Shown here: positions 5,001-63,623 of the stretch, one piece after another
Numbering within the stretch: the stretch's first letter is position 1
Layout of the letters: the number at the start of each line of letters is the position of its first letter
From: Raillietiella orientalis
Lineage: Eukaryota
DNA length: 64,000 nt
NCBI GenBank assembly: GCA_036172245.1
Contig: JAYWIR010000005.1
Coordinates: 310,001-374,000 of the forward strand
Direction: 5' to 3'
Notes under the pieces: generated by a model
The model's database searches: none
Told to the model about the DNA's origin: nothing
The model's input: the letters and a program-made list of their open reading frames with translations, nothing else
Program-made: the position numbers and the translations under genes

Positions 5001-5420
5001 GCACATGGGCGAAGTTAAACCAGTCAAGTGGACGCGAGGGAGAGTAAATCTTGTGTGTCAGGTGCGGGGGGTGGGAGTCCCTCCCTCACCTGATAGTTGA
5101 CTGTCCTGCCCTCCGGTCCCTGTGGGAAGTTTCGGGATGACCCTTGGGTTACCGGTTGGCGGCAACCCCAGAGACGTTTACCGCCTTCTCTTCGTGCGGG
5201 ACGCCCTGCAGCCAGCCGCAGCCCTGGCAGCACTTTGCTGCATCCGTGGGATTGTGGCGGCCCGGATGAAGCCGAAGATGAAGATGCCTACGAAAGGGAC
5301 GTCATCCTGTATGCTGTTCGCTTCCTGAAGAGAGCTACCGGATCGCCCCAGCTGGGTGGAATAAGAAAGGACCTCGAGGGCATTCTGCAAAGGATGGACC
5401 CTCCTATTAGTGGTCAGTGA
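2052..5420 (+). pseudogene. LINE ORF2 (APE endonuclease + reverse transcriptase + C-terminal zinc finger), frameshifted
   Basis: IASWNVNGL, DILCLQETH, TGDLN, SDH (APE); LLPKGGD..WRPISILNSD, DMEKAFNTIDH, GVRQGD..SPMLF, YADD, YLGV (RT); ESLPHL..DCP (ZnF). Confidence 0.92.
2198..2672 (+). mobile_element. 5'-truncated LINE 3' end nested in the APE domain
   Basis: Perfect 10-bp TSD ACAAGATATT at 2188-2197 and 2673-2682. Removing the insert restores TIAQDILCLQETH. Encodes the ORF2 tail (VLCCIRGI) and the terminal hairpin. Confidence 0.92.
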
Positions 5421-5639
5421 TCCCTTCCCGGCCCTCCAAACTCTTTTTTGTTTTGTTGGTTTTCTTTTTCTTTTTGTTTTTTTCCCATCCCCTTCCACTG
5501 CCGAGGAGAGTCACTCTGGTCTGCGTCCCGGCGTCCCGGCAGGTCCTGAGAAATGTTAGTCATTAGTAGGGCCTTGTACCACGTTTTGTAATGACCTTAA
5601 GGAGAGTTTTGAATAAACATCCCGGCGTATCCGGGTAGC

Positions 5640-6085
5640 AACTCCGAAACCGGGGGGCAGGCGTCCCAGGGGGAACTCCTCGCGGATCGAGTGCTTGAGG
5701 CGGTCCCGGTCTGCAAGACTCCGGAGCGTAACACCACTCAAGAATTGGCGGAGATGTTTCATCGCATCGGGGAGCTTTGTCCAGTCCCCCGGGGACGCCA
5801 CGCCTTGGAAGGAGTTCCCTTGTCGCGTGGCCATACGTCGAATACGAGCCGGTAATGGTCGGACAGCTTTGACGGAAGTCCCTCTCGTTTCCCGACCCGT
5901 GCAAACAGGTTGTGGTCGAGGAAGATATGGTCAATGCTGTCCTCCATTTCCGGGTCTCCCTCCATCAGGTTGCGCGAGCGCATGATGGCGCACAACTCTA
6001 TGGGCACGTTCTTTTGCATGCAGGACGCACCTGACAACAGGCAGGGGTTGAAGTCTCCGCCTGTCATTGGACCCTGTGCACTCCT
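5640..6085 (-). pseudogene. LINE APE endonuclease fragment
   Basis: GGDFNPCL, SIDHIFL, LSDHYRLV motifs on the minus strand. Confidence 0.85.
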
Positions 6086-7899: not shown

Positions 7900-8830
7900 G
7901 AGTAGGCCCTATGCGCCGCATACGGCCAGTCGCCCCAGTGAACAGCGATATCCAGGATGTGTCACGTATCCATGATTTCCAAGGAATGCGCTGGAGTTCG
8001 TGGGGCTGCATACCATTCAGCCGTTCTCCTTGGTCAGGGTGGCCATGCGTCCGAGGAGAAGGTCGCATCTTCTGATCTTCCGGCAGGGGCACAGAAGAAA
8101 AGACGCGAGTTCTTGCGTCCTGGATATACGTCTGGAGGGGAGGCGGGCTGGAACGCACCAAGGAGTGCTCCAGTACTTCGCCACGATGGTCAAGGTTCGC
8201 CATCGCAGCTGAATTTCCATCCGCTCCAGCGTCAGGAGGCCGAGACCGCCGTTCCGACGCGGAGCGCACAAGTCCTGCAGCTTCACTCGGGGCCCTCCGC
8301 TGCCCTACAGGGCGATGCACAGGAGGTCCTTGGTTCTCTTCTCCATCTCGCGGGGTACGGGCAAACAAAAAGCAGGGGGAGAAGGAGGGGGGCGCGAACG
8401 CATTCCACACTGCGACCCGTTCCGGCAAGTGAAACTTGTCTTCCAGGAACGGGCCGATCGCCGACTCCACTTTCTCGAGACGACCTGACCACCTGACTTC
8501 TGACGGAAAGAAGTTTCCCAACGGAACGCAAGGTACTTTAAGTACCTCTTCGTGGGGATCCTCAGGCGGATCCAGTCAGGTCGTCCTGCCCACGTTGCAC
8601 CAACCGCTAACACCGACGACTTTGCCTTGTTCACCTGCAGTCCCGTCCCGCGGCTCAGCAAAGACATCGTCGACGATGACATCGAAGTTAGGATCGAAGA
8701 CATCCTCGACTGCCGCTGCCAGGGAGGACATGGGACATGGACAACAAGAGCACAAGATCGTCGGCGTATGCTGCTACAGCAGGCGTGCCGGGGCACGAGC
8801 TCGTCAAAGCAGCCAAGGTCGCCCACTAGG
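7900..8830 (-). pseudogene. LINE RT C-terminal fragment (same subfamily as 10965-12846)
   Basis: GTPAVAAYADD, GLQVNKAKS, KYL, GGLGLLTLERME. Confidence 0.87.
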
Positions 8831-8854
8831 GATACATACGTTAGCCCACATACG

Positions 8855-10035
8855 TTTCAGTGCCACCGAGCACTGGCGGAGAGTTTTAATACGCGGCTAG
8901 GATTTTTTCGTCTTTTCTCCGTCTTTTTTTCAACTTTAAGCTTTTTTTTTTTCATTTTTGGCCTTGACAAGCTGCTAGCCCTTTTCTTCTCCCACGTCTT
9001 CGGAAGGTTTCTCCACTGACATCTGTTGGGGAGTTTCGGGCGCTGGCTGCTTCGGCCGGCCATTTTCCCAATACCATCGGGAAAATGGATTGGTGGATGG
9101 TTTCCAGATTCCCCGCGCGTTTCGTCTATGCCTTTTTAGCGGCCGGGAGAATCGGGATGGGATGCTTCGGGCACACACGACGGACGTGGCCCTTCTCTCC
9201 GCACATGTAGCATTCGATGTTCGGGCACCTCTTGTGGAGATGCCCTACTTCATCGCAGTAGCCACAATACTGGGGCTTCCCTACGTACCAGAGGTCGACC
9301 TACTCGTTTGTGACCTCCAGCTTGTGGGGGAGCCCACCCACGTGCACGCGCTGTGGCCATGCCCCCGAAAAGGCTACGTGAAAATCGTGGGCTTCGGCCA
9401 CAACGCGTGCACGTCTCTGTATTTTTTTAACTGATCACCAACCGCAGACCGCGTCATACGGTTAGTGATGCCGGTCAAATGGGCCACTACCGAGTGGTCC
9501 ATTGATACCGGGAAGATCTTACGGCCGTCCACGATCAACGGGGTGTTAATCAGGCGCCGAGCCAGGCTGATGTCTTTACACACCAGCTCAACGCGCTGTG
9601 CCCCGATGAGCACGGACAGACCGTCAAGATCTTCATGAACATTCATTTCTTGCAGCGCTCGCGTAAACGAGCGTGCTGTCTTGCCGTCAAACAAGGGACT
9701 TACCTTGTATACAAGCGAAGGCTTGTATCCCGTGGCCCTATAGGCGGCTTTCTCGGCCAAGGTTTCGGCGCTGGGCGCGGCCACCATGGTGCTCCAACTC
9801 CTCGCTGGCGGCGAAGAGGATCCTGGGGCAGATGCCCCCATCTCTGCAGGTCGTGAGGGGGGAGTTGCCTCCTCCACACCTACTTCCATCGCGGTGTCCT
9901 CAGGCATAGCTGCCATTGGACACCCACGATCTACACTTCACAATACCACACACACAAAAAAAAAAACCTTTCTGAGGCTCCGTTTACGGAGCGACAGAAA
10001 AACACGTCCGCCCAAACCAGGTTTCGGCGAAGGCC
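8855..10035 (-). mobile_element. ORF1-only (HAL1-like) retroelement, decayed
   Basis: 5' motif CGGACGTG-N9-CGCTCCG. ORF1 starts at 9916 (SWSTMVA; CGYCDEVGHLHKRC, CYMCGEKGHVRRVC) and runs directly into ATTAAA plus a CAGTGC/GCACTG terminal hairpin, with no ORF2. No TSD seen. Confidence 0.7.
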
Positions 10036-10286
10036 GATACACACTTTGGTATGTATTGAAGATCTAAGAGTGTTCTTGGATATATGTAAGCGTTTAAACC
10101 AACTTGTTGATAATACGCCCATTGCTCTCTCATTGATCCATCTCAATTTTTCACGAGTCGACGACAAAAGTAAGGACTGCTATTGCAACTGACTCCAATA
10201 TCCCGATATTAGGTAAAACCATAACGCGAAGAGGCACTAGTCGAAGAGCACCATCTGACCCTAATCCAGTACCTGGTAGTAGCAGG

Positions 10287-10964
10287 ATGTCTCAGAGCTT
10301 TGAGTGGAGGAACCCAAATGACACTCTAGTCCAAATACAGAATAATCTGAGTAGTGGGTCAGCTCGTCAGAATCTGATAGGTATTCATTTAAATCTCGGA
10401 CTCAGAAGGAACGATAGACGAACGAAGAATCTATTTCCTTACTTATTCTTGGCATCCAGAGGAGAATGTATACTCATTCGACATTCATCAAGGAGTGCCA
10501 TGACGAGTGTTATAGAGATAGCCAATGCTATAGCTCCGAATGTACAAAGAATAGGGTTACCTGAAAATCTTGCCAAGGACAGATTCCGAGCCGAAATCAT
10601 TTGCTTTTTATGTAATGAGGGATCTAACAATCCATGGGTTAATGATGCTATTTGGAGTGCAGATTAGCATCTGATGGGCCCTTGCATGAAATGGCATCCT
10701 TTGTACCGATATTAAGGTCTGGATGGAACCCACAAGAAATACCCAGGTTAATGGCACGAGAATCTCTAAGTGCCATAGCATTAAGTAACATCGTAGTATG
10801 GCTTATCGAATTGATTTTCTCATTGCCTCCTCTTCATAGTATTTGTGCGATATTGTATATACAAGCCTTTGTATCGTTTGCGAAGAGAGGTATCCTTACT
10901 ATGTAGAAAGCTGAAAAAATCAATACAAATCTTATTGAAAAGGGTAAACCCAACCCTAATCTTA
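10287..10964 (+). pseudogene. Endogenous chuvirus-like (Jingchuvirales) nucleoprotein, 5' half
   Basis: One frameshift (~10655) and one stop (10904). Contains YIQAFVSFAKRG and rejoins 12861 in frame after LINE removal. The frame is open upstream to ~10100. Confidence 0.75.
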
Positions 10965-12846
10965 GAGTTGGTGCTGAGAGCATACAGGGTAACTCTGGCA
11001 ACCCTGCCGAGCTCGTGTGCCGGCACGCCTGCCGTGTCGGCCTATGCAGACGATCTTCTGCTGCTGCTTCCCGGGTCCACCCCGGCGAGTGCGCTCGAGG
11101 ACTTCGAGTTGCTACGCCGCGAGACGGGCCTGGAGGTGAACAGGGCGAAGTCGTCCATCGTATATGTCGGCTCGGTGTGGGCTGGACGGTTGGACTGGAT
11201 CCTCCTGGGGATCCCCACGGGCAGGTGCTTCAAGTACCTTGGCGTTCCGTTTGGGGACTTCTGCGTGACAGAAGCCTGGTCCGACCGTCTCCAAAAGGCA
11301 TCGTTGGCGATCGGTCCGTTCCGCGAAGGCACGTTTCATTTGCAGGAACGGGCCGCGGTGTGGAACGCATTTGCGGCCCCCCTTCTTCGCCCCCTACTTT
11401 TTGTTTGCCCCGCCCCTCACTTTGTTAAGAAAAGAGCAGCGGACCTCCTAAGGACAGTCCTTTGGAGCAAAGGGAGGTCCCGTGTGCGTCCACGTAAGGA
11501 CGGTGGACTTGGCCTACTTACGCTGGAGCGCATGGAATTGCAACTACGATTTAGGACTCTCGTCCTTGCGGCAGACTTGTGGGACACGCCCTGGTGCGTT
11601 CCAGCATGCCTCCTGGCCCAACGAGCCTCCGGATATGGCGGACTTTCGTCGTTTTTCTGGGCGCGCGACCGCAGACAAGCACACTGCGGCTTTTACCTGC
11701 GTCGCATGGCCGTTGTGGTTCAGGAGAACGCTTGGATCTCCTGCCTCCCCGGGAACTACTCTGCATAGCTGCACGAGTCAGTCTCCACGTGGGAAAAGAT
11801 CCACGTTACGGCGGGCACAAAGAACACTTCTTTGTGCCTGAAAAGGCACGCCTGCTGGACACTGCAGGAGATCGTGCAGTCCCACGACCAGCTTCTGTGG
11901 ACTCTGATTGCTCCCCTTGCCCCAGTGCTGCCCTTTCTTGTGAACTCTAGGGACAGCAACGAGCAGGGGAAATGGACAGTGTCCTGCTCTATTGACGGCA
12001 GGACACAACTGATCAAGGCGTGGACATCTCGGCAGCTAGCGGATGCTGCGACGCCGAGTGTCCTGCCCAACGGCGTTCTACGCTGGGGCGAGCTACTCGG
12101 ACTATCTCCGGAGGAGATGAAGTGGCCCCCAGCGTCCTGGAACAGTGGCTCCCTCCCCTTAAAATGGAAGGAGGTGGCGTTGCTTGTCCTGTATTGGGGT
12201 TTATCCTGCAAAGCACGCCTCTCTCACTGGACACGGGGGGCTGTGGATTCCCAGTGCGACCGGTGAGGGGAAAAAGAGACATTCACCCACCTTCTTCTTG
12301 AATGCAGTGCCATCCGCCCTCTATGGAATCGTCTTACGGCGATTCTGGACATCCGCGGAGGCGCCCCTAAGGACGTTTTTAGGCGCCTCTTCTCTCGTGA
12401 CGCCTTGTCCCCGCCCGCTTGTGTAGCAGTTCTCTGTTGCATTCGAGGGATCGTGGCGGCTTGGAACGCGACCAGAAGGCATCAGGCCAGCGGCAACGCG
12501 TTATATTGGACTCGCCTTTTTGTGCGGAACATCTGCAGGTGGCGCCACTTGGGTGCACAAAGGACGCAGCTTGTGAGGATCCTGAACAGGATCTAGATGA
12601 CCTCTCCGCGCGCACTGTGATCCCTTCCCCGTCCTCCCATCCCCAAAACATTAGTGCCCTCCCACGTTTGAACTTTTTGTTTGTTTTGTTTCTTTATCCC
12701 AACCCCTGAGCGTCGGAAGGACCACGCCGGTTCAACACCGGCAAGCAGCAGGCTGCCTTGTTGTGGTGAACATTGGGTTCGCCACGCGAAAATTGATTGT
12801 ATTTTTATTTTTCAAAAATAAATGCTCCGGCATATCCGGGTGTAAA
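10965..12846 (+). mobile_element. 5'-truncated Tx1/L1-like LINE inserted into the viral N gene
   Basis: 14-bp TSD CAACCCTAATCTTA at 10951-10964 and 12847-12860; AYADD, KYLGV, GGLGL, C-terminal CKARL..CDR; terminal hairpin 12817-12840. Confidence 0.93.
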
Positions 12847-13332
12847 CAACCCTAATCTTACTTCCGATTTGGTGAGAATGATTAATGCACAGCTTGGTCA
12901 CCTTATTGATGAAACCAATGCTGAAATCATATTTACAACTTGGAGTACTGATACACGACCTAACTCATTACGCGCTAGCATTACGTTAGCACAAACTGTC
13001 GGATCAGGTTAAACAGCACTATTGTGTATTCGGAGAGCATTATTAGAGTTTCCAGATATTTCATGGGCGATTATCGGTAAACTACTCAAAACCGAAATAG
13101 ACTGTGTCACCCAAGCCTTAAGAACTGTTAATAACAACCCATATTATGGATTTGCAGCAGATTTAAGAGAAGTTAGATCTACACTATACAAAAATATAGC
13201 TACGTGGCCAAGGAGTTGTTGAGATTGTATGGAGACCCTACTTTTAGCAGCAGCATTAACGATTACAAAGGATGGACAAGCAATCCTAGACATGAGACCA
13301 AATTAAACTCACTTATCTCTCAATATCTTATG
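12847..13332 (+). pseudogene. Endogenous chuvirus-like nucleoprotein, 3' half
   Basis: ITLAQTVGSG, IRRALLEFPD, NNPYYGF..DL..VRSTLYKN, AKELL, YKGWTSNPRH match chuvirus N C-terminal motifs as I recall them. Confidence 0.78.
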
Positions 13333-13766
13333 CTACCAGCCGCAGCCTTGGCAGCACTTTGCTGCATGCGCGGGATTGTACCTGCCTGGAGCGGCGGCGA
13401 CACAGCAGAAAGCAACCAAAGGGACGTCGTCGAATACGCAGTTCGCTTCATGCGAATAGCCACCCGATTGCCTCACCTAAGGTTAGTCCGGAAGGACCTC
13501 TCCAGGATCCTGCGAAGGATAGACCCCGCCTCAAGCGGGCCTCGATTCCCTCGATTCCCTTCCCCTCTAGAGTGTTTTTTTCTATCCATTTTTATTTTAT
13601 TTTTGTTTTTTGTTCTCTTCCCATCCCCCTCCGCTGCCGAGGATAGTCTTGTCAGTCTGCGTACTGACGACCCGGCAGGTTCACTGACTTATTGGCCGTA
13701 CTGGGGCTTCGTACCAGGTTGTACCAGCTAGAATTTTTAAATAAATACCCCGGCTTGACCGGGTGT
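13333..13766 (+). mobile_element. 5'-truncated LINE 3' end fused directly to the viral N fragment
   Basis: PAAALAALCCMRGIV is near-identical to 5211-5255; CTGCGT hairpin 13651-13668; terminal hairpin 13740-13763; no local TSD. Confidence 0.88.
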
Positions 13767-14560
13767 CAACACCGAGGAGGTCGTGTGTGATTTCCTGTCT
13801 CAATACGGCGAAGTTCAGAAAGTGGCGTTCCGCCACATTATGGCGGACGTATTTGTGGGAGAGGCAATGGCCAAAATCAAATTGTTTAAAGACGCCAAGA
13901 TCACAGGAGAAGTGTCCACCGAGGTGCACTCTCAAAACGTTCAGCTCCATTACCGCCTCCAAGGCTGCAAGCAGTTCGGGCATCGGCTCGGCGCATCTCC
14001 GAAAGCTCTCTGCTTTAAATGTGGCCAGCAGGGTCACTTTATAAAAGCCTGCACCAGGCCCTTGCAGTTCCATCAGTCCGAGGTTCTCGAAATGGTTCGA
14101 GGCGCAGGGATTGTCCCCGCTCCCTGCAGTGCAAAGCAAGGAGCACGAAGGAAAAGTGGAGCTTCCCAGAGCTAGCGTGGGTTTCACGGAAGTCAAAAAG
14201 AAGAAGAGGAAGGCCGTGGGCGAAAGCTTCCTCCCTCCTCAGTAGCGCCGAAGGAATTGGGCGTAACGGAAGAGAAGCAACAGGAGCTGGGGTTGGCAGA
14301 GGAGGCAGTCACACTGGTTGAAACCATCCGCCCAGAGAACACGGAGGAGGAACAGAAGGAAGAGATGCGCCGCATCTTCTCCCTCCAATAAGAAATCCTC
14401 GCCACGGTTGTGAATGACCGCATGAGTCCAAATGGAAATCGCCCTCAACGTGGCGAAGGCCGAAATCGTGGCCTTGGAAAAAGAGGCGGAGCTCCCCACC
14501 AGGTCAACTAGGCGTGACGACCGAGGAGCACAGCTTTGCGCACGGACAATCTCATAACTG
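13767..14560 (+). pseudogene. LINE ORF1 fragment (knuckle region to C-terminus)
   Basis: FLSQYGEVQKV, CFKCGQQGHFIKAC, GFTEVKKK. Confidence 0.8.
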
Positions 14561-14579
14561 AAAACGGCAACGGAGGCGT

Positions 14580-15270
14580 GATTATTGCTTGATTTAGCTT
14601 TACCCAATACCCCGCATAGGCAGCGTCAAATACCGCTGGCGCGGTAATTTTTGTGTGCACTAATGGAGCAAGCGACCGTGAAAAGCGAGTGAGTGACCAG
14701 CGTGGTGCAAGATGGAGGCGCCGAAATCACCCGGATCGACATGCCACCGAGGTTCCAAGAGGGAGAAAGTACGACGGATGGAAGTGGAAGCAGGTCTATC
14801 GACAGAGCAAGCGACGACAACGGCTGCTGCAAAAGCAGGTCAGGCACCCGCAACGTCGTACGCGAGCGTGGCCGCATCCACCTCATCCTCAAAGCCCGTG
14901 TCTTTCACGGGAACAATGTTATCGTCAGAAGAGTAATCAAGGAAGAATTCAGGCCATTTCTGGAATTTTGGCTCCGAGATGACCGTAGTCACCTTTTCGA
15001 TGGGCCGATTAAAAAACAAAGCGGTGTGCGACATTTACCTCGCGATTCATCGCAATAGAATCGATTTCAAGTTCATCAAGGCAATCGTCCCATTAGTCGG
15101 AGGATTCTCCGTGTACATGGCCAACCAGGATGTTATCGACGATCTTGTTGAGAACGGGCCGTCCATCAGCGGGAGGACCCTCCAAGGAATTTAGGAGCAC
15201 ACGGCCACGATGGCCTACCTGTCAGGTCTGCATTCGATGACGGACGTGCAAGCCGTGTTCGCCCACTTCT
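14580..15270 (+). mobile_element. LINE 5'UTR and ORF1 N-terminal fragment
   Basis: 5'UTR similar to 331-395; ATSYASVAA and IDFKFIKAIVP segments. Confidence 0.72.
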
Positions 15271-15780
15271 GTCTCCGTGGACGCGCTCGTGGTCGGCTCC
15301 TGGGCGCCTAGTACCCGAATAACGATGTCGTACTCAACCATCTGGTACTTGGCAGACACACGATAAAGACAATTAAGCCCCGATTAGTCTGCTCGGCCAT
15401 CCAGGGCTCGAGGGACATCTACATTGACCATATCACTATGGAACCAGGCACCAGGGGGCACCACGAGCAACAAGTGTTGCCAGCCCCCCTCTCTCGTTGT
15501 ACTACAGGACGCCACATCGGGGCAGGATGTACTGATTGACTTCTGCTGACCACTCGGTCCCTTTACCACCACGTCGAACATCAGTGTGCCGCGCGGATTC
15601 TCGTTGTTGTTTGCAACCCTCTGAGAAGGACTCGTTTACAGCGTGGTCACAATAAAGTTATGACAATAAGTGAATTGGGTGATTAAGTGAAAAAAAAAAA
15701 AAATTGCCACTGATAGGTATATATTGTATGTGAATTGAATTAACATTTTATTTTCTATCTTTAATAGATAATAGTGCAAT

Positions 15781-15866
15781 ATGGCTGAAGAGAGACCAGA
15801 CCAATACATATACAACCTACCCACGCTTGATGGTGGTATAGAGATGGGCATAACAACGTGCAGCGA
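15781..15866 (+). pseudogene. Endogenous qinvirus-like nucleocapsid gene, N-terminus
   Basis: MAEERPDQYIYNLPTLDGGIEMGITTCSD continues in frame at 17994 (VALPESQRLPVL) after removal of the TSD-flanked insert. Confidence 0.6.
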
Positions 15867-17978
15867 CAACCGACCCCCTCCATTGTTCGGACGTGCATTC
15901 TTGCGCTCCGTCTTTGGAATTTTTTGCGGTTGTTCCTTTTGGGTGTGGTGTGTAATTTTCGTAAGAAGATGAAGCCAACACCTGCTTCCATGGAGGTGGA
16001 GGAATCCCCCTGCGTTGCAGGACCTTCTTCGGGAGGATTGGAAGCCTCCACCGATCGTCCCTCGCCTCCAGCGAGAAGTTTTGCCGCCGTTGCTAAGGCA
16101 GCGGCGGCTCACGGAGCCCCACTCGACGAGGCAGAGCTACGGGCGTACGCCGCAAACGGCTAAAATCCCCCTCTGGCCTACAAGTTCAGTGCCGCCTACC
16201 GGGATGGGACGGGAGACCAGCTCTGGAGCGAGCTGGAACGCGTCGGGGTCCGAGAGGACGATCTCCTGGCATTAATGCCGGTGAGCGCGGTAGGCTATTG
16301 GGAGGTGCACTGCAAGGATGCAGCCCTCGTCCAGCGCCTGCTGCGAACGCCCCTTAAAATCAGGGGTAAGGAGGTCGTCCCCTCGGCCCTGGACCATTCG
16401 TTCGTGGTCCAACTCTCGGGCATTCGCCCGAGAATCGCCGACAGCGACCTTATTGTTTCACTCGAGGCGTTCGCCACAGTGCACGCAATGTGGAGGCGCG
16501 CGAATCCGATCAATAAAGTCGCGCGCCTCTCTTGCGGACTCGCCACGGCGCGCGTCACCATGGACGACCGGAGGCTGATGCCTTCGCAGATCCTCCTCGG
16601 TGTATTTACCATCGTGTATTTACGGTTTGCCGGGCAAACCCCTGCATGCGGCAACTACGGTAAGGAGGGCCACCGTCCGCGGAAGTGCCCAACACGCAGT
16701 TGCCGATACTGCAAACTGCTCGGTCACTCGATTAACGAGTGCGCCGAGCTGAAACGCAAGAGGAGGGCGAGAAACCTACCCGCAACATCGCCGTCCGCTC
16801 CGATTCCTTCTGCCACATCGTCGGGCAAGAAATCCGGCGCGAACGAGGCTTCGCAGCGAAGCAGCCGAAAATCCCATTGCGCGGACGTGTCTGGGAGCAA
16901 AGCTCCACAAAAGTCCGCCAAAGAGGGTAAGACGCTGCTTCAAGCTGCCGAGAACAAGCCCCGAGCCACGCAGTCTACAAAAAACATCGGGCAGACTGCA
17001 AAACCGCCGCTTCCGTCCGCTCTCGCTCCGGAGCGAAATAGCGGTGGCACGCCCGGGAAGTCCACCGGAGCGTCCAAAAAAGGGGTCGCGCGCCCCTTTG
17101 CCCGTGAAAGGCAAGCCGGCGACGGCGAGCCCTCAGCGGCAAAGGCTGAAAAGCCTCGCGCGACCTCCAAGAATCCCGCCACTCTGCCCGCACCTTCCGA
17201 TAAGGAGGTGCAAAAGGCAGCAGTTGCGACGGACAAACTGGCCGCCATCGCCGCATCGGAGGCCTTGGAGAGGATGCGGAGGACCCTGGAAGCCCTCGCG
17301 CCGAACCGAGGCAAACCCGAGGGCGACGAGGTTGGCTGGACCTCCGTTGGGGGAAGGAAGAAGGAGCGCAAACCGCGCGATCCTTCCCACTTCCCCATTA
17401 TAAAGGTAGGGGGGGTCAAGAGGCAGCCCCGTGCGCCAAAGAAGGCGCAAGAAAAAGCCTCCGCTGCCGCCGCGCGCGCCGTCGCAAACATCCGCGGCGA
17501 GAGGGCAGCTGCCGACGCCGCGACTACGAAAGGGGGAACGGCGCCGAAGGCACCCTCCAAGAATGCTGGACCAGCTCCGAGCTGCCAGCAGAAGAAGAGG
17601 CAGGCGAAACGCCCGCCGCGCGCGCGGAATTCGGACTCCGAGGTGGAGTCCGAATGCAGCGCAAAGGCTCGCCAAGCCCCGGTCAAGGCCAGGGCTGCGC
17701 GCAAGCCAAAACTTGCCAGGAGAGAGATCGCCGGCATCCATCGCCGGTTCTGAAAGGAAGGAACGGCCGAACCAAAGACGCCTGTCCCCTGCCCTCCATA
17801 TTTTTATTTTTATTTTTTATAGTAGTGTATTTGTGGTCCCCTCCCTCCCGTTCCGGACTTTCGGCATACCGACCTGCGTGTCGGGGATCCCACCCCCTTC
17901 GTCTCTTGTTTTTCCCTTTGTCCAGGAACTCTGTTCCCGGATAGTTTTTAATAAACGCCTCGGCGCACCCGGGTGATA
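15867..17978 (+). mobile_element. Full-length ORF1-only non-autonomous LINE derivative (HAL1-like)
   Basis: 15-bp TSD AACAACG(T/G)GCAGCGA at 15852-15866 and 17979-17993; 5' CGGACGTG-N8-CGCTCCG; ORF1 only; 3'UTR CTGCGT hairpin and terminal AATAAA hairpin. Confidence 0.88.
15969..17753 (+). pseudogene. ORF1 of the ORF1-only element (two zinc knuckles, long K/A/R-rich tail)
   Basis: ATG 15969, SFAAVA, stop at 16161, frameshift before 16275; CGNYGKEGHRPRKC, CRYCKLLGHSINEC; GWTSVGGRKK. Confidence 0.85.
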
Positions 17979-18818
17979 AACAACGGGCAGCGATGTTGCC
18001 CTTCCAGAATCCCAGAGACTACCAGTGCTTATCACTCCCACTGCCATATACAACCAGTTCGTGCACGCATTGAACTGGTTTATAACCACACAGTCATACT
18101 CCAGTGATATCGAACCGGTGATCGTGAATGGCCTGTTTGCTGTTTGCATACGGGTCAGTGCATTTCCGTAATGTCAACGGCGTTAAAGTGCCTGATGGAG
18201 ACTATGTTGTGACTAGGATTATCGAGCCAGATAAAACCACTAAAGAGAGACTGCTCAAATTGCTCGATAAGACATTATGCCAACACATGTTAATACTGCT
18301 GCATTCAACTAAAGCCAGTTACTGTAGGTGTAACCACCAGGTTGGTACAGGAGAAAGAGGCAGTCGTGGTGCTGGTTACCCATTAAAAGTGGCAAACACG
18401 TACTTTTCCCGATATGACACAAGCAGGATTATAGGCTTGGCACATCAGTTGGGCCATTACATCTCCACTTACTATGTCCTGGGGGCAGCTGGCATAGAAG
18501 GGATAGGGCAAACACAGGTCGTTCCACCTAACGAAAAGGAACATACCAGCTGGACATTTGGACCTGATGCAAGACGCGAATTCAAGTCAGCCCCTGCAGG
18601 CACACACCGCATGCAGCAGGGCTTAAGGTATTCAAGAGGATGCAAGATATTGTCCTCGCATCACCGAAATGATGGCCCTCAAACCTGCATGTGACAATAA
18701 TGGATGACCCAGTCAGACATCATAAAAGCATTCGTTATTTGACTGGTTAACCTAGGGCTAACTTCCTAGATACTGATGCAGACCGATATATGGGACGACT
18801 CGGGTCATACGTTAGACA
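17979..18818 (+). pseudogene. Endogenous qinvirus-like nucleocapsid gene, main body
   Basis: STKASY..NHQVGTG, GYPLKV, HQLGHYIST..VL, D.R..KSAPAGT, DPVRHH..IRYLTG*PR..D.D...MGRLGSY resemble Qinviridae segment-2 protein motifs (from memory); frameshifts near 18140 and 18630-18700. Confidence 0.62.
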
Positions 18819-19165
18819 TTTATATCTTGCTGCTCGAGGGGAGTGTATCCTTACAAGACATCTATCTAGAGCTACTATGACAGATGTGGTAGCGATAGCT
18901 AACACCATAACCCCTAACGTTCGTGCATTAGGATTGTCAACCGAAGCCGCACAAGCTCGTTTTGATTGCAAGTTTTGCATTTACTCTGCCATGAGGGGTC
19001 CAATAATCCATGGTTCATGGTAACAGATGAAAGGTGGACCAATGCTCTAAGTCCGGGAGGACCCTTACACAACATTCTAGGACACGTGCCCGAAAGATGG
19101 GCAGGATGGAATATAAATGATCTTCCAACCCAAATAGCTAGAACTGATATTTGGGATGATGGAAA
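18819..19165 (+). pseudogene. Second, divergent chuvirus-like N fragment (N-terminal region)
   Basis: LYLAARGECILTRH..CHEGSNNPW..GPLH..GWN aligns with LFLASRGECILIRH..CNEGSNNPW..GPLH..GWN at 10440-10735. Confidence 0.75.
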
Positions 19166-19229
19166 TCCTTTTGGGTTCTCTTCTGTCTTCGCTATTTTTT
19201 CCCTTCCAGCATTTTTTTTCCAGGTTTTT

Positions 19230-19598
19230 GAGGTTTTCTTTTTTTTGGTACGCTAAGTACCTCAAGTGCCGGTCGCGTGCCTCGCGGCGCACGTGGCTCT
19301 TTAACACTGTTCCACTTCACCCGCGGAGGGTGAGTGTTATTCTTCAAGATAGGGGACACCCCGGAAGGGGGGTTCCGCCCTATGAATCCAGGAAGGCTTG
19401 GAGTCCGTTCCTCTCACGCATCCCCCACCCTGGTTGTCTCCGAAGGGATCTCCTTCCTCATTCTCTCCGGAGGGAGCACCCCGGAAGGGGGTGGTCCTCT
19501 CCATTTCATCTTCTCCGAAGGGAACCCGCAAGGGAACCGCTCCTGTTCACTCTGAAGAGAACTCCGAAGGGACGCTTTCGAAATTCAGAAGGGCGCTC
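19230..19598 (-). repeat. Unclassified dispersed repeat, probable retroelement 3' end
   Basis: Highly similar to 43081-43590; related to 30310-30600 and 55985-56135; A-rich end and CGTGC/GCACG hairpin. Confidence 0.75.
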
Positions 19599-21804
19599 AC
19601 CGACCATTTACAAATCTTCGGACCAAAACACCCAAATCCATTCCGCAACTTACAAAAACTGCACTAACCAGAGCATATCTCGAGCCAGCCCGAGGTATAG
19701 GAGCTCAAAACATCGCATGCAGCAGCAAGCAAGACAAAAATGGACCATAAACCCACGATGTCTCTGACTACTAAATAAAGGTAATCTTTTAAGACTGCCA
19801 TGCCTTCCGTGAGGGGAAGTGTCGGCAACAAGTGCTGCCATATCCAGACTCTCCTTTTCATAAAATTAACACACATTAATCACACATGTATTCGTATGAA
19901 TTACAGACCGATTCCAGAAAATCTAACACGAAGATAAAATTCACTAACCAAACCAAATAGACTTGACCAATTTTTCTCATTTCAGACGCTCAACCCCATC
20001 AAAGTCGGAACAGTAAATAATGGACAATCACACCAAATTTTACGCTAGGAACCTACTTTTCAAAGAAAAAAAAAAGAAAAATAAAATAAAAAAGCCATCA
20101 CACTCACAGAAAGACAATTGTTTGCCACCCATTAGTCAATTAGACTCGTAAGGTGGCTACCCCAAATAACAGAAGTACCCAACCAGAGACATATGGATCC
20201 ATGACGAAATCTGAAACACAGGAAAGAAAAACCCTCGCAAAATACCTCTACTACTGCAAAGAAGCAACATACCTAAAACTTGCAAGAAATCATACGTAGT
20301 CCACCTTTATAATGGATACAAAAATCGTCTGCGTAAACTGGGTGACACAATATGGCTTTACTCAAGCCATTAAAAATGGCATAATCTTCGACCCAAACTA
20401 GAACGGATGCATAAAGTTCTACGAAGTAACACACGTAGTATGCTTCGCCAACATTTTGAGAAGATACATCGCCAACAGTTCTCTGGCAAATCAAAACTTT
20501 CAACTGACAGATGGAAAATCGAGGCTATCACAGACGAGAGAGGAAAATCATCCCTCGTCATGAAGAAAAACGAACTCACCCTACGATGACCAAAACAACG
20601 CCTACTGATGTATCTTCCAAAACAAAATGAAAAAAATGACAAAACTACCATCCTTCGAATTTATTTTTAAAAGCTGAAACGTCATATAACAACGGATTGT
20701 CCTCCGGAAATATTTTTTTTCCAGAAAACCTTGAGACCCACAATGATTCTCACGGTCAACATATGCAATCAACTACACCCAAAAATTGGTCAGTTACTTG
20801 GAAACGATGTTGAATAGTACTAACAGCCCTGGACACCCTGGAAAACATTCATACGGGCTCACATCCAAGGCTCACATTAACAACGCACTGCCTTCGATTC
20901 TCAGGATCAAGGTTACGTTGTAATGTATAGCATAGTACATTTCTCGGTCTTCTCAAACTGCCATTGCAACTACTCGTGGGTCCAACGAACAGATTGAAAA
21001 AGCACACCTCAAGAGAAACGAACAAGCAACGTGGATCTTTAGTGACGGCAGCTTTCAACTCAAGTATCGGGGCTTACCCTAAGATCCCACATTCCCTGCA
21101 GAAAGATGCCTGATGCAGAACACAACCTATTATAACAATAACCTAGGATTATTAATCTTTTAAATTATGATTTTATTTCAGGATGAATCATATAGCTGCC
21201 CTCTCACATGAGACATATGATGATTGTTCTTCATACACCAAACTAAGCTCTGTAGCAGTGTTCGTCCAACTAGCATCCAATGAGTACCTATGCAAAGACC
21301 TCAAACAGCAACTGACCAGCTTGCAATACCTTTACCTCTTCACAATCACGTAGATACCTCAACTTCTCGAATCATGTGCTCACTCCTCCCGATATTATGG
21401 GACTGCTCAGGCAGAAAAAGTAACTAACAGGATAGAATAACCTACCACCAATTTCAAACGTCATTAATTATGAGTCTGGTAATTATCATCTCATACTATA
21501 TGGACTACACAAAATCTTGAGACTGAGTGAACCCCTGCAGTTCTGTTCCACAATTCTAAGCAATACATCTGAAAAATGGATTGCGGAAATTCATTTCTGA
21601 ACCTCAGAAAAGAAAGGCTAGCCCTAAATTAGCGGAGCAAATAGCAAACACTTCCATAGTGTCTTGAAACCTTGATTCTGTTCCTCACTTAACAATGCTT
21701 CAAAGTTTATAAGAACAGTTTAGGGTTGGGCTGGATATCATGATTCTAGAGATCATAGATAGAAACATACTGTTGTATGTTTCGCCCGGGTGCTCTTATA
21801 GTGT

Positions 21805-22390
21805 GTGCTCTCCCACATCACTATTGATACATCCGAACGTTTGGTTGTTACACAACGTAGCTCGGAACAACCGACTACAATAACGGTACGAAAGACTCCT
21901 TCTGGGTCTCATCGAAGGCGATCGAGAAGACTCAGAGATACAACCACACTTCGTACTCCTGTGACTAGGTCCAGGGCTGGTGCGGATACTATAAAAGAAG
22001 CTGAACAGATAGAGATGACTGACGAGGACTACACATCTGCCATTGATCAACAAACTTCCGATCGGGATACACGTCGACCTCCTACCATGAATCAGAAGCA
22101 GAGCCCTGGTCCTTCTGCCGCTCCTGATAATAGAGCTTATGACTGGCGTAATCCTAACGATAACTGCACTCAAATTCAACAGCTCTTCAGCTCCAATTCG
22201 CCTTTAACCAGAATTATAGGTATAAATTTGAACCTCGGACGAGTTAAAAATGATAGAAATGGAATCAATTTGTATCTTTTTCTATATCTGGCCACTCGAG
22301 GTGAGAGCATTCTGATCAAATATCAGAATAGGAACAATATGACCCAGGTGGTTGCAATACTTAATCTTATAGTCCCCTCTCATAAAAGTG
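21805..22390 (+). pseudogene. Third chuvirus-like N fragment with a long low-complexity in-frame N-terminal extension
   Basis: YDWRNPNDN..QIQ..IGINLNLG..LYLATRGESIL matches FEWRNPNDT..QIQ..IGIHLNLG..LFLASRGECIL at 10287. Confidence 0.75.
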
Positions 22391-25300
22391 GACTTCGAAA
22401 CTTTAAGCAACTTTAAACTCTCTTGAGCTTCCAAGCTCCCATGTAGGAAACTTGCTATGGAGTCTGTCACACCCAACAAAAAATGATGGCCTTGCTTTTG
22501 AACAACTATGTAGACATACCATTCCACCATCCAAATAGCTGTAGTCAGCTATAGCTTCTAGTCCACCACAAAGGAAGCACTGAGGAAACTCCCAAGCAGT
22601 GGGATCCCAATCACCGAACACACATGTTAGACTCCGCCAAGGTTCCTCGAATAGCAGAATAAATAATTTCAACAGAACTGACACACTCACTCATCATCTT
22701 TCTGAGTCTGTTTGTCCCAGCTTCATGCACTAAAATAATTCTAGCTCCTCTGAGCTACAGTGCCAACCTAGGAACATCCTCACACTAAGATCATGCTGAA
22801 TTTCTTAAACCTGATGACAGAGAGAGAAATCTACTGGGATGACGAAGAATACAGGCAATGGCAGCTGCTTGAAAGAGTTGAGAGCTGAAAGTCATTTGGA
22901 GCTACATGCACATCAGTCCTAAATTAGCAGGCAGCTATTTGAGATCAGAGACTTTTGGAAACATAAAAAACAATTAAATTAGGATTGCCTTTTCATGAAA
23001 TACTCCTGGATCTACTGCCTTAACACAAAGTGAGAAATGACAAGAGAGTAGCATTTACCATCCAGTTTTCAACAAACTCTGTCACCTGTCACCTGTACAT
23101 AGTACAAGGTACAACAGTGTGTTAATAAAGATAGATGCATCTTGATGAGAGTATTAATGTCATTGAGATTTAAAGAGAAACAAATCAAAGAGTGACTTGT
23201 TGAGACAAAGGAATCTCAGCAGTATATCATGATAGAAAAGCATGCCATTTTGAGAATACGGTAATGTAGATGCCTGAAAAATGGGAACACTAAATGTACC
23301 ACTCTTGTCCCAAGAAAGGGCACAATCTGTATTTCAAAGCTACAGTCACTTGATCAGCAAGTTTAGAGACTAGAATTAGGGATGATATGACCAAGTCTTA
23401 CTATCATAACCTGATCCATCTATTGAAAAGCCAACTTAGAAATGTATGGAAGCATTGCAGTGCATCCTTGCTTCCCACTATTCGAGAGGTGCTTCTAATT
23501 CACTTCACATAGACTGATTTCCCTACTGCATGAAGTCCATCCTGACTTATTCAACTTTGCTTGATGCAAAGCTTACAAACAAAAGAGAGCAATGTTCTGC
23601 AACTTTTTTTTGGAGTGAAGAGGACCTCTGTTTTGCAGATAGTATTCACCTTACAGACAAAACTTCACGTTACTAAGTGAAGACAAATGTGCATAATGAT
23701 CCAAATTCTTATCCATTAAGTTGTTGTGTTTGCTGTTACGTACAGAATTGTGCCTCTCGAACTTTGCTATCAGAGAATATCTGGCTTTTGTTTTCCATAA
23801 ATTAAACAATTTGTTGAAATGTCCTTATAATAAAGAGATACTGCATTACTTCAAAAACTCAAGGACAAAAAAGAAAACTTTTTAAATAGTAAGGATTCGT
23901 TCTCCTCCAATGTTTAAGAAATATTCAAGCTTGAACATCCCTACATCCTTTCATGTGGAAGCATCCTCGAAAAGTGTAAAGAATTCAAAAGATAAAATTC
24001 ATTGATATCCAGGATGGATGATGGATGATGAGATGCAAACACAAATACCACGATATCCGGGAAACCAAACCTAGAAACTCTGGGACTTAAAAGAGGGTTA
24101 TCTAAATAAATCAAATCACTTCCAATGTATTCTTAAAGATAAAAAAGTAGTGCATCCTATACAATGGCACTAGTTCCAAATGACTAGTTCACCAGCCTCA
24201 AAAGAATACGTTCCATCTAACCTCACTTCATAGCACACACATCATGGGCTGACCATAACCGTTAATCTTGGTGCAACAAGTGCCATCTCAACTCTTTCGA
24301 AACTTGCAACCATTTCTTAATTTGAAATTCAATAGGAAAAACACCCTTATATAATAAACATCCTGATAAACTTAAAGTGGACTTTTGTTCACCACGTGAT
24401 CCTTACTTTCCAGCCCTCTCCAATAAACTTTGTCCACCATCACCATCCATTCAACTCGACAAGTTGGCCGAATTCAGGCTTTTCAGAACGTTCAATGGAG
24501 TATTTCTGTTCTTCACGTGATATACATCCAAATGGCATCAGGGCTGGCAAACTGCTCGCAAAGAAAAAAAAACTGGGATAACTAAGAAGGTCCACTCTTT
24601 TGAGTTAATGAAAAACCGGCTTCTAACATCACTTTCATTGCAAATATTTCCAAACTTGCGAACATCAACACAAAATCCCATAGCAGTATTTTTCTAATCG
24701 ACCAAGCAAAGAACTACAATCAATCGTGTGGAGATGCATTCTTTACGATGACGAGAAAAAAAATATAAACTTCCTTGATGATGACGGTGATGGGGATGAT
24801 TAGGAGGAGGAGGGTTGGAAGCTGATGTGGCGGAAGAAGCAAGGAAAGATCAGAAGTGGAATGGACTAGAAGGAGAAAAGGAGGCAGTCTCCTTTCTCCT
24901 TTTCCATCCCTCGAAGCAGTGGACCGAAGAGTGTAGAAGGGGAGGATGAGCACGGCCGGACTGATTTGAGGAGTATCCCCCTCTTAAAGAAGACTTTTCA
25001 AGAAGACTTCTTTGAAAGGTTTCAGATTTGTCTGTAACCTTTTGAAGAAGGTCACAGATGAACAAGGCGCATACCCGCAGTCACGCTGTGATGGGAAGTT
25101 CACGCATCGAAGTGGTGGTGGTGGTAGGCAAGGTTCCCGAAAATGTATCTCTCTGATCACAGCAGAATGCCTAAGGCTGTGTCGTTATCGTTATCGTTAA
25201 ATTGCTTGTACCATTCGTATCCTGCAGCAAAAGACTCTTTACCAGCTCAGTTTCACATGAGCTTTGTGTCACTCTCCTCCATCCCAAGGGGCAGTCACAA

Positions 25301-37964: not shown

Positions 37965-38560
37965 GGGGAATTCACCATAAAGATCAACGGCCCAGCATCA
38001 TCCGATGTTCGAGCGGGAAGAGAGGAGTCCGACAGGGAGACCCTCAGAAACCCCATGCTCTTCGTTCTGTACATGGACGCGGTGTCATCCTACGTGGGGA
38101 GGGAGAGTTTCACCTCAACCTGGAAAGAAAGAAAACCAACCGCATGGCCTGCGCGGACGAGCGGCTCTTCGTCTTGGCGGGAGAGCAGGACCAAAGGCGT
38201 TTCTGGTCATCGCCGAAGCCATGGAAACCGGACTGGGGCTAGGGTTTCATGACCGAAAATCACACCTCATCACGGTAGGCATCCCAAACGCCATGCTCCT
38301 GCAATGCCGCGGATTCGGGATAGAGGACGAAGCAACATACCTGGGAGTCCACATTGGAGACACCAAAACATCGCCGGCACTCCCATGGAAGAGCTGCAAA
38401 AGAAACACTGGACTACCAAGGGGCGAACTTTTTCCTGGAGAAGAAGGCCCACCTACGGAACGCGGCGCCCGCACTACAGTTCCTGTTCGGGACGGCCTTC
38501 TTCCACATGCCGGAGAAGGTAACCAAACAAACTGGTCAACGTCCAACGACAGATGACATG
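37965..38560 (+). pseudogene. Decayed LINE RT fragment
   Basis: GVRQGD, MLFVLYMDA, METGLGL, TYLGVHIGD parallel 4335-4850. Confidence 0.8.
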
Positions 38561-55920: not shown

Positions 55921-55984
55921 ACAAAAATAATGTGCTTCTGTTATTTGTATAATGAATGCCCCCCGGCGTGTCCGGGTGGAAATC

Positions 55985-63603: not shown

Positions 63604-63623
63604 ACACACACACACACACACAC
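63604..63623. repeat. (CA)n microsatellite
   Basis: ACACACACACACACACACAC run. Confidence 0.9.

Follow-up and report, generated by a model that had tools for sequence, protein, structure and literature searches.

Three chuvirus nucleoprotein-like relics on one strand of a LINE-rich 12-kb locus

How sequences resembling the nucleoprotein of RNA viruses came to lie close together, all on one strand and among fragments of LINE elements, is the question posed by a 12.3 kb interval within the 64 kb stretch of DNA analysed here (the window). We found three endogenous viral element (EVE) relics related to chuvirus nucleoprotein (N) within these approximately 12 kb, all on the plus strand, and refer to them as EVE-A, EVE-C and EVE-D. 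The sequence-only reading had listed four nucleoprotein-like fragments on this strand; three were recovered as chuvirus N by HMMER profile and tblastn, and the fourth, at 15781-18818, proved to be mostly LINE ORF1.

A HMMER profile built from the three copies, representing 119 positions of the N-terminal part only, gave five matches at E<=1e-3 among 1,835,955,588 proteins. Among them are three annotated nucleocapsids of chuviruses or chu-related viruses, namely 'putative nucleocapsid [Wufeng shrew chuvirus 6]' (P0009, E 1e-8), 'nucleoprotein [Chuviridae sp.]' (P0011, E 1.6e-5) and 'nucleocapsid protein [dermapteran chu-related virus 142]' (P0012, E 3e-4); the fourth is an unnamed relative of 490 residues (P0008, E 1.7e-15), and the fifth (P0010), a repetitive 750-aa protein from a 281-kb contig, was judged spurious. 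Annotated chuvirus N was thus the only family to show similarity in this search. Reference N proteins used as tblastn queries placed EVE-A, EVE-C and EVE-D on the window, with 35-44% of residues in common with the closest named relative (P0009) over the matched stretches and up to 48% with the unnamed P0008, and they identified no further N-like piece at E<0.01 on either strand of the 64 kb. Coverage of N is colinear, and many of the invariant columns defined from an alignment of four chuvirus N proteins are retained (58 of the 74 covered by EVE-A, 6 of 9 in EVE-C and 13 of 18 in EVE-D). These matches support the derivation of the three fragments from viral N. The following features were annotated:

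10137-10964, plus strand: EVE-A, 5′ part, chuvirus N-like relic corresponding to P0008 residues 76-298
10965-12846, plus strand: 5′-truncated LINE within EVE-A, with the C-terminal part of the reverse transcriptase (RT) and downstream ORF2
12847-13331, plus strand: EVE-A, 3′ part, corresponding to P0008 residues 294-452
13332-13775, plus strand: LINE 3′ tail of 444 bp from the same LINE group, 67% identical to 5212-5647
13759-14172, plus strand: LINE ORF1 fragment with a CCHC zinc knuckle (zf-CCHC, E 3.2e-5), right after the LINE tail
16131-17985, plus strand: LINE ORF1-like element with a 529-codon open frame (16164-17750) and the family 3′ terminus
17986-18694, plus strand: orphan coding relic made up of two frames, one of 63 codons (17980-18171) and then one of 188 codons (18128-18694)
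about 18751-19124, plus strand: EVE-C, internal N-like fragment corresponding to P0009 residues 196-299 and P0008 residues 136-184
21802-22413, plus strand: EVE-D, 204-codon frame without interruption, with N homology at 22141-22380 (P0008 residues 90-168)

Other searches added little to this assignment. Pfam gave no relevant family for the seven candidate pieces, and a word-index homology search of longer proteins with P0001 returned nothing among 620 candidates; the same type of search with the four-sequence N alignment among proteins of near length returned two proteins from 7998 scored candidates, both already in the query. A single 22-residue match to P0001 in an IMG/VR scan (L001) was treated as chance. 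One N-like fragment (L005) was found in a metagenome scan with the N alignment and was uninformative, being 41.5% identical to EVE-A (P0003) over 65 aa and 34-39% identical to the reference N proteins. Searched with three chuvirus-like contigs from IMG/VR, the window showed no L- or G-like match at E<=0.01, which fits capture of an N mRNA and not of a whole viral genome. In the assembly as it stands, the relics are endogenous, as opposed to exogenous or contaminant sequence, on the basis of their broken frames, the host mobile elements inserted in or joined to them, and the presence of a host-type PPP1R7-like gene in the same window.

EVE-A, the most complete of the three copies, spans nearly the whole of N and is split by a LINE. 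Its 5′ part has a frame open from 10137, with a Met codon at 10287 and P0008 homology starting at 10266; the frame changes once between approximately 10650 and 10770, and a stop interrupts it at 10904-10906. In the 3′ part, a stop lies in frame at 13010-13012 and the frame changes near 13200; this part ends approximately 38 codons short of the end of the reference N. Together the tblastn matches (10266-10966 and 12848-13326) cover residues 76-452 of the 490 of P0008 in order and retain the FVSFAKRG, GSG, NNPYYGF and AKELL stretches of N, despite two stops, two frame changes and a 1.9-kb insertion. An AF2 model of 12848-13219 with seven references was all-helical with a mean pLDDT of 62.3, and none of the 85 matches from a Foldseek search of this model against BFVD reached E<=0.001, a fish chuvirus-like N being ranked second (E 0.83).

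In the inserted LINE, the RT and downstream ORF2 sequence occupies a single frame interrupted by two stops (10968-11765, 11769-12263 and 12267-12593), the RVT_1 match (E 3.4e-4) falls below the Pfam cut-off, and in the ESM Atlas the RT matched RVT_1 clusters annotated 'commonest Chordata', a weak lead only. The element ends in the conserved family terminus AATAAA..CCGGC...CCGGGTG and is flanked by an exact 14-nt target-site duplication, CAACCCTAATCTTA, at 10951-10964 (the left copy, at which the 5′ part of EVE-A terminates) and 12847-12860. EVE-A was already in place when this LINE inserted by target-primed reverse transcription, leaving the 14-nt duplication. At 13331/13332 the truncated end of EVE-A directly adjoins the 444-bp LINE tail, which either forms a chimera with it through template switching or inserted there later as a nested element; no direct repeat was found around the whole of EVE-A in the span 9900-13900. 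The involvement of LINEs proposed from sequence alone receives support from the anatomy of the locus, in both the target-site duplication and the direct EVE-to-LINE-tail junction.

EVE-C, placed at 18814-19124 by tblastn with the references, changes frame near 18960, and a T-rich stretch lies downstream of it. EVE-D corresponds to the N-terminal third of N only; its Met codons are at 22015 and 22087, with the N-like part at about 22087-22380, and its frame length was reached in none of 2000 shuffles. Its surroundings are AT-rich and include no recognised neighbouring retroelement, and a candidate LINE terminus upstream was rejected as it gave no alignment to the four LINE ends of the window. 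Both EVE-C and EVE-D cover N residues 136-168, so they are not halves of one copy. Mammalian EBLNs resemble processed pseudogenes and carry poly(A) and flanking duplications. EVE-A, by contrast, breaks off within the ORF where it meets a LINE tail, and we found neither a poly(A) after EVE-A, EVE-C or EVE-D nor a direct repeat flanking a whole EVE, the flanks of EVE-C and EVE-D being inspected by eye. The EBLN-like combination of a 3′ poly(A) and a duplication around the whole viral insert was therefore not seen in these three copies, and LINE-mediated capture of EVE-C and EVE-D is assumed by analogy.

The interval 15781-18818 had been read as a qinvirus-like nucleoprotein and as evidence of a qinvirus-like lineage, neither of which found support. 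Most of it is the LINE ORF1-like element at 16131-17985, around which no direct repeat was found in the span 15500-18100; an 11-nt repeat, CATATACAACC (15807 and 18045), was rejected as a duplication around the 15.9-18.0 kb LINE because the LINE terminates at approximately 17985 and not at 18044, and because chance alone would yield one match of this kind. The remainder, at 17980-18694, has no relative in the databases searched. This orphan relic (GC 0.48) lies directly upstream of the EVE-C start in the same frame, and its 188-codon frame is longer than expected by chance (length reached in 4 of 2000 shuffles). It had no match in Pfam, PHROGs or IMG/VR; the orphan piece P0005 gave nothing below E 0.49 among PDB sequences, no usable match in the ESM Atlas and nothing among 297 candidates in a word-index search of longer proteins. 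Comparison with chuvirus N by hhalign and with three chuvirus contigs by tblastx gave no match either, and AF2 on P0005 alone was unusable (pLDDT 29.5).

Protein-level conservation alongside strong DNA divergence, as remarked on in the sequence-only reading, was evident among the three copies, with identities of 0.48-0.58 for amino acids, 0.50-0.61 for nucleotides and 0.28-0.45 for third positions. Identities at the three codon positions were 0.58/0.60/0.32 for A-D (84 codons, pN/pS 0.37), 0.54/0.67/0.28 for A-C (61 codons, pN/pS 0.36) and 0.67/0.70/0.45 for C-D (33 codons, pN/pS 0.40). As pairs were picked via protein similarity, pN is biased downward, but the codon-position contrast is independent of that bias; the overlap common to all three copies is only about 33 codons. 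Third positions are close to random and synonymous sites are saturated, which together with pN/pS of 0.36-0.40 shows, as judged from these alignments, divergence under protein-level constraint and not by recent tandem duplication. The latter had been named beforehand as grounds for abandoning the multiple-capture reading and is excluded by the saturated sites and by self-blastn of the window, in which 11 non-self matches at E<=1e-10 included no DNA common to the EVE copies or their flanks.

In-window tblastn gave 44.7% over 103 aa for A-D, 52.5% over 61 aa for A-C and 52.8-59% over 32-36 aa for C-D; identity among the copies (44-59%) exceeds that to every reference N (26-43%). On a tree of ten rows, comprising the three copies and seven reference N proteins (262 of 358 columns kept), the copies form one group with support of 88/90, which is not at the starred level, and no exogenous virus nests among them. 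Given this grouping, an old duplication kept under selection is a conceivable, if improbable, origin. Repeated independent capture of chuvirus-like N nevertheless appears the most economical reading: separate captures, as originally suggested, are likely in view of the saturated sites and the lack of common flanks, although nothing in these searches supports the qinvirus-like lineage once counted among them.

We consider the locus to consist, probably, of three pseudogenised EVEs derived from N mRNAs of different but related chuvirus-like viruses (Jingchuvirales) that were copied by a LINE RT in a region accumulating LINEs. N mRNAs from three such viruses would have been the source of EVE-A, EVE-C and EVE-D, and a LINE (non-LTR) reverse transcriptase would have copied each into germline DNA in what were probably separate integration events; the three copies are cut at different points of N. 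For EVE-A, the junction of its truncated end with the 444-bp LINE tail suggests that reverse transcription began on LINE RNA and then switched template to the viral mRNA, although this junction may instead reflect a later nested insertion of which the downstream half was lost. LINE fragments would have kept accumulating after capture. The LINE pieces of the locus (10965-12846, 13332-13775, 13759-14172 and 16131-17985) and the EVEs differ in GC content (0.53-0.61 and 0.38-0.45, respectively). In their current state the copies are, most likely, fossils without a coding role, judging from the stops, frame changes and insertion of EVE-A, the short and broken EVE-C, and the truncation of EVE-D to a third of the gene.

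A possible but tentative alternative, raised in the sequence-only reading, is that the locus is a candidate one-strand piRNA cluster storing viral sequence as heritable antiviral memory. A putative long precursor across the co-oriented LINE and EVE pieces might then, no less tentatively, give rise to 24-32-nt small RNAs, although small RNAs complementary to viral N mRNA would need minus-strand transcription. The dense, nested and co-oriented TE and EVE fragments of a uni-strand piRNA cluster are present, with all seven recognised elements between 10 and 22.4 kb (four LINE pieces and three EVEs) on the plus strand, as are nine of the 11 LINE pieces in the whole window. Local EVE density is also far above any genome-wide average, the highest among 48 arthropods being given as 5.68 per 10^7 bp in a survey which also reports that 81.4% of EVEs inside piRNA clusters yielded primary piRNAs (10.1101/396382). 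The co-orientation of the EVEs, already pointed out from the sequence, is real, but it is statistically modest (two-sided binomial p ~0.016 for seven of seven; p = 0.25 for the three EVEs alone) and has ordinary explanations; the seven events also lack independence, since EVE-A may have brought the tail at 13332 with it and pieces that abut may stem from a single insertion. Moreover, the copies are only approximately 50% identical in DNA and have 26-48% protein identity to any known virus, making sequence-specific targeting of present-day viruses doubtful, a caveat that ter Horst et al. also raise. With a PPP1R7-like gene 26 kb away, the locus is also not obviously in deep heterochromatin. Any current activity would most plausibly be as part of a one-strand, TE-rich, piRNA-like precursor, which on the features of the locus we regard as conceivable, if doubtful.

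Rather unlikely, in our estimation, is that clustering and co-orientation are by-products of LINE biology and not of selection, the family inserting beside sequence that resembles its own 3′ end so that LINEs and LINE-virus chimeras pile up head-to-tail. Four LINE 3′ ends in the window have one conserved terminus in common, of a hairpin type lacking poly(A) in this family. Just left of the insertion in EVE-A, the target GGGTAAACCCAAC (10942-10954) resembles the LINE terminus GGGTGTAAACAAC (12838-12850); the tail ending at 13775 is at once followed by another 5′-truncated LINE piece on the same strand, and similar bases follow the four conserved 3′ termini. However, only a single junction is informative, the common bases past the termini may belong to the element, and EVE-D has no adjoining LINE. 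The EVEs had been described as interleaved only with retroelement pieces, which holds for the four LINE pieces but not for 14.2-15.9 kb and 19.2-22.0 kb, where no family match was found; approximately 4.5 kb of the 10-22.4 kb interval is without annotation. A further candidate ORF1 at 14937-15191 was rejected for want of similarity to the ORF1s, and Rfam gave 0 matches in the window at the gathering threshold.

Synonymous saturation is very slow at host mutation rates but takes little time in an RNA virus. A single ancient integration that was co-opted as a host gene, duplicated head-to-tail under purifying selection and later decayed is very improbable: the copies are co-oriented, close together and grouped on the tree (88/90), pN/pS below 1 is equally expected under host-side selection, EVE-D still has its uninterrupted 204-codon frame (0 of 2000 shuffles) and expressed, translated EVEs have been described (PMC13643977), but saturation would have needed a very long time in the host, the copies keep different parts of N (P0008 residues 76-452, 136-about 240 and 90-168), no flanking DNA is held in common and every copy is truncated or broken.

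Viral fossil clusters of this type are already known, and the locus can be compared with the EVE/TE loci of Aedes and the chuvirus N EVEs of vertebrates. In the EVE piRNA clusters of Aedes aegypti and Ae. albopictus, as presented by Whitfield et al. (10.1101/127498) and Palatini et al. (PMC5497376), several non-retroviral EVEs likewise lie in one orientation among retroelement fragments (10.1101/127498), chuvirus-derived EVEs are included and TE-virus hybrids formed by template switching are the proposed route. The Aedes partners described there are LTR elements (Ty3/gypsy and Pao-Bel), whereas only non-LTR LINE pieces were recognised here, and small RNAs have been mapped in Aedes. Of 428 mosquito chuvirus EVEs counted in PMC7642597, 409 were glycoprotein and one was nucleoprotein, in contrast to the three N copies found here. 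Vertebrate chuvirus EVEs include 92 N-like elements reported in teleosts, amphibians, squamates and marsupials (PMC11521997); these are also N-derived, have low protein identity to known chuviruses (PMC11521997, PMC11089739) and occur as multiple integrations per genome that their authors interpret as recurrent integration or amplification, but they are described as dispersed loci and orthologous groups and not as a 12-kb same-strand cluster of three divergent copies. The short apparent intron (51 nt, in frame) of the PPP1R7-like gene in the window hints at a host other than a vertebrate. Capture of the N mRNA of a negative-strand RNA virus by non-LTR machinery also has a parallel in the mammalian EBLN elements, which were made by LINE-1, are located in mammalian piRNA clusters and have a proposed antiviral small-RNA role, according to PMC4574747 and PMC3205384.

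If the preferred reading of separate chuvirus-like captures is correct, the locus would be a compact record of at least three encounters of one host lineage with a poorly known clade of negative-strand RNA viruses, and one junction gives a direct view of how a viral copy and a non-LTR element became neighbours. Should it produce small RNAs, the locus would parallel the LTR-based EVE clusters of mosquitoes, with LINEs in place of LTR elements; if not, it would still be useful for dating the chuvirus-host association via orthologous loci. A viral gene that has yet to be sampled may have left the orphan frame at 17980-18694. A broader proposal, which we rate as unlikely, is that the locus may be a LINE-built, one-strand small-RNA source that repeatedly sampled N as successive viruses of one chuvirus clade infected the host lineage, with the orphan relic, joined in frame ahead of EVE-C, representing a viral gene or N-terminal domain from a lineage lacking sequenced relatives; if true, the Aedes-type architecture of heritable memory would extend to another retroelement class and probably another host group, and a dated series of one virus clade would be preserved at one address. 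Among minor features of the window, TRF reported one trivial array, and the apparent host gene resembling PPP1R7 looks to have a 51-nt in-frame intron.

Viral relics were located by combining stop-to-stop reading frames between 9 and 24 kb with tblastn searches within the window, which together identified three pieces:

10137-10664, + strand: first frame of EVE-A
18751-19020, + strand: frame of EVE-C
21802-22413, + strand: frame of EVE-D

In the tblastn comparisons these pieces shared 44.7% identity over 103 aa (A-D), 52.5% over 61 aa (A-C) and 52.8-59% over 32-36 aa (C-D), and none was recognised by Pfam. A HMMER profile built from the alignment of the pieces as they stand was searched against 1,835,955,588 representative proteins and returned five at E<=1e-3: an unnamed protein from a 4.4-kb assembled contig (P0008, E 1.7e-15), 'putative nucleocapsid [Wufeng shrew chuvirus 6]' (P0009, E 1e-8), 'nucleoprotein [Chuviridae sp.]' (P0011, E 1.6e-5), 'nucleocapsid protein [dermapteran chu-related virus 142]' (P0012, E 3e-4), and a repetitive protein from a 281-kb contig that was matched in four stretches and judged spurious (P0010). 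Placing the other four on the window as reference nucleoproteins (N) revealed that EVE-A extends far past its first frame: 10266-10966 corresponds to residues 76-298 of P0008, and a second part at 12848-13326 to residues 294-452 of its 490; in the C-terminal half, 48% of residues are identical across a stretch of 118. The same approach placed EVE-C at 18814-19124 and EVE-D at 22141-22380, and detected no further N-like stretch at E<0.01 anywhere in the 64 kb, both strands included. Columns invariant among the four references are kept at 58 of the 74 covered by EVE-A, 6 of 9 in EVE-C and 13 of 18 in EVE-D. From three IMG/VR chuvirus-like contigs (L002-L004) the N proteins alone matched the window, their L and G proteins giving no match at E<=0.01. 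The three relics are almost certainly of chuvirus N origin. We also noted, at 2501-2908 of a 3.5-kb metagenome contig (L005), a C-terminal piece resembling chuvirus N (34-39% identity to the references) that may represent a further EVE or part of a virus.

EVE-A is interrupted by a 1,882-bp 5′-truncated LINE (10965-12846) carrying the C-terminal part of a reverse transcriptase (a match to RVT_1 at E 3.4e-4, which does not reach the Pfam cut-off; in the ESM Atlas its neighbours are RVT_1 clusters). The LINE is bounded at 10951-10964 and 12847-12860 by an exact 14-nt duplication, CAACCCTAATCTTA, such that the codons for NPNL occur once before it and once after it, and the reference N is colinear across the insertion; EVE-A was therefore present before the LINE inserted by target-primed reverse transcription. 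The EVE-A reading frame ends at 13326-13331, about 38 codons before the end of the reference N, and adjoins a 444-bp 3′ tail (13332-13775) from a LINE belonging to the inserted element's group. This junction would be the expected trace of a reverse transcriptase switching template from LINE RNA to viral mRNA. It could also have arisen from a later nested insertion whose downstream portion was lost, and the next sequence is another 5′-truncated LINE piece (13759-14172, ORF1 with a CCHC knuckle). No poly(A) follows EVE-A, EVE-C or EVE-D, no direct repeat around a whole EVE was found by scanning 9900-13900 and 15500-18100 or by eye in the flanks of EVE-C and EVE-D, and EVE-D is surrounded by AT-rich DNA and adjoins no recognised element. 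On balance we lean towards LINE reverse transcriptase as the agent of integration.

The remaining ORF2 of the LINE within EVE-A (10968-12593, about 1.6 kb) occupies a single frame with only two stops, and the LINE copies in the window are mutually only 67-71% identical, which together indicate different sublineages that are not uniformly ancient. Four copies share a 3′ terminus without poly(A) (5620-5660, 12800-12850, 13730-13775 and 17940-17985), consisting of AATAAA, a CCGG...CCGG hairpin, GGGTG and a short AAC-rich end. Directly left of the LINE insertion, the target site in EVE-A is similar to this terminus, a hint of homology-guided priming.

All seven recognised elements between 10 and 22.4 kb (four LINE pieces and three EVEs) lie on the + strand, as do 9 of the 11 LINE pieces in the window (exceptions 7987-9937 and 39432-39884). 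The two-sided probability of seven on one strand is about 0.016 for independent events, which these are not fully; that for the three EVEs alone is 0.25. The sequence-only reading had described a same-strand EVE cluster interleaved only with retroelement pieces and proposed an antiviral memory locus; the shared strand and the LINE pieces were confirmed, while exclusive interleaving is not established, since the stretches 14.2-15.9 and 19.2-22.0 kb, about 4.5 kb in all, carry no annotation. With three EVEs in 12.3 kb, the local density exceeds by orders of magnitude the maximum genome-wide value in a survey of 48 arthropods, 5.68 per 10^7 bp (10.1101/396382). Alternatively, the strand bias could be an ordinary by-product of a LINE family that inserts beside sequence like its own 3′ end, as the terminus-like target in EVE-A and the head-to-tail abutment of LINE pieces would suggest. 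A present role as a putative source of piRNA-like RNAs is possible but less likely than not, and putative protection against a living virus is less likely still, since the copies are only about 50% identical to one another in DNA and have at most 48% of residues in common with any reference protein found.

Codon comparison of the relics (identity at codon positions 1/2/3; pN/pS)
A-D, 84 codons: 0.58/0.60/0.32; 0.37
A-C, 61 codons: 0.54/0.67/0.28; 0.36
C-D, 33 codons: 0.67/0.70/0.45; 0.40

In these alignments saturation affects synonymous but not replacement sites. A duplicate decaying neutrally would lose identity at all three codon positions alike, so selection on the protein was acting during most of the divergence. 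Synonymous sites saturate rapidly in RNA viruses but not in host genes, which makes separate integrations of related viruses the economical and probable reading. In a tree with seven reference N proteins the relics formed one group (support 88/90, short of the starred level; recovered in 89% of 200 bootstrap trees), and they are closer to one another (44-59%) than to any of the seven (26-43%). This grouping would accord with an old duplication retained under host selection, but the slow saturation of synonymous sites in host genes makes that improbable; it also leaves the repeated independent capture first proposed unproven, although favoured by the saturated sites. A recent tandem duplication, a possibility raised by the sequence-only reading, is excluded by the sequence comparisons: besides the saturation, self-blastn found no DNA similarity between the copies or their flanks (11 non-self hits, none joining these regions). 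The copies also differ in the N residues they retain, which in P0008 numbering are 76-452 in EVE-A, 136 to ~240 in EVE-C and 90-168 in EVE-D; the overlap of EVE-C with EVE-D rules these two out as halves of one copy.

A fourth fragment, 15781-18818, had been read as qinvirus-like nucleoprotein. While the other three are chuvirus N fossils close to where they were first drawn, and the original observation is to that extent largely borne out, this one is not a single viral gene and the qinvirus-like lineage is unsupported. Most of it (~16131-17985) is a LINE ORF1-like element whose 529-codon frame is homologous to two further ORF1 pieces within the window and which ends in the 3′ terminus common to the four LINE copies. 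The remainder (17980-18694) has a GC content of 0.48, unlike the LINEs, and contains a 63-codon frame followed by a 188-codon orphan frame (P0005), which is longer than expected by chance (when 17976-18750 was dinucleotide-shuffled 2000 times, 4 shuffles reached this length) and reads on without a change of frame to where EVE-C first becomes recognisable. P0005 had no relative in Pfam, PHROGs, PDB sequences, the ESM Atlas, IMG/VR or a word-index search of longer proteins; its alignment to chuvirus N had an hhalign probability of 0.1%, tblastx of its region against three chuvirus contigs found no relative, and its predicted fold had a pLDDT of 29.5. This lack of relatives is weak evidence, and 17980-18694 may, as far as the data allow, be a relic of some real coding sequence. 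A 65-codon frame at 15775-15972 had no support of any kind.

The relics differ in their decay. EVE-A has two in-frame stops (10904-10906 and 13010-13012) and two frame changes (~10650-10770 and ~13200) in addition to the LINE insertion and 3′ truncation, and EVE-C has a frame change near 18960 with stops directly upstream. EVE-D retains an uninterrupted 204-codon frame, a length reached by none of 2000 shuffles, but its N content is limited to the first third of that protein. The frame includes 95 codons ahead of the first N-homologous Met, and it may reflect either a young insertion or a putative expressed truncated protein.

The locus belongs to the known non-retroviral EVEs clustered with retroelement fragments and is no new class of system; it is well documented by its sequence and shows a clear insertion of a LINE into an EVE as well as a junction between EVE and LINE. 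The unidirectional EVE-bearing loci of Aedes have the same anatomy, with LTR elements as partners in place of the LINEs found here (10.1101/127498). Mosquito chuvirus EVEs are mostly glycoprotein (409 of 428, with one nucleoprotein; PMC7642597), whereas the N bias seen here resembles that of vertebrate chuvirus EVEs, of which 92 of 121 are N (PMC11521997). Comparable clusters might already be listed in the supplements of these papers.

The window as a whole looks eukaryotic, with GC-rich blocks (0.53-0.65) interspersed in an AT-rich background (~0.40). No viral Pfam family was matched by 137 frames of >=150 aa, by 130 frames of 70-149 aa at 1-26 kb, by 85 frames of 105-149 aa at 25.9-64 kb or by 107 short frames in AT-rich parts. 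Four adjacent frames among these 107 (48448-49719, - strand) are leucine-rich repeats (LRR_4 E 2.2e-17 for 49109-49483) whose best solved relatives are PPP1R7/SDS22 (E 3.4e-35), the alignment containing a 17-residue in-frame insert that resembles a short unspliced intron; they probably represent a host gene, which lies at a distance of 26 kb from the EVE cluster. An unclassified repeat occurs at 19233-19541, beginning just past a T-rich stretch 3′ of EVE-C, and at 43081-43482 (69% identity, both + strand). Long GC-rich stretches (0.55-0.65) at 26000-47500 and 51300-64000 contain many long frames on both strands with almost no family matches and only a few LINE reverse transcriptase-like pieces (38191-38635, 39432-39884 and 53939-54881), and are probably heavily decayed GC-rich retroelements.
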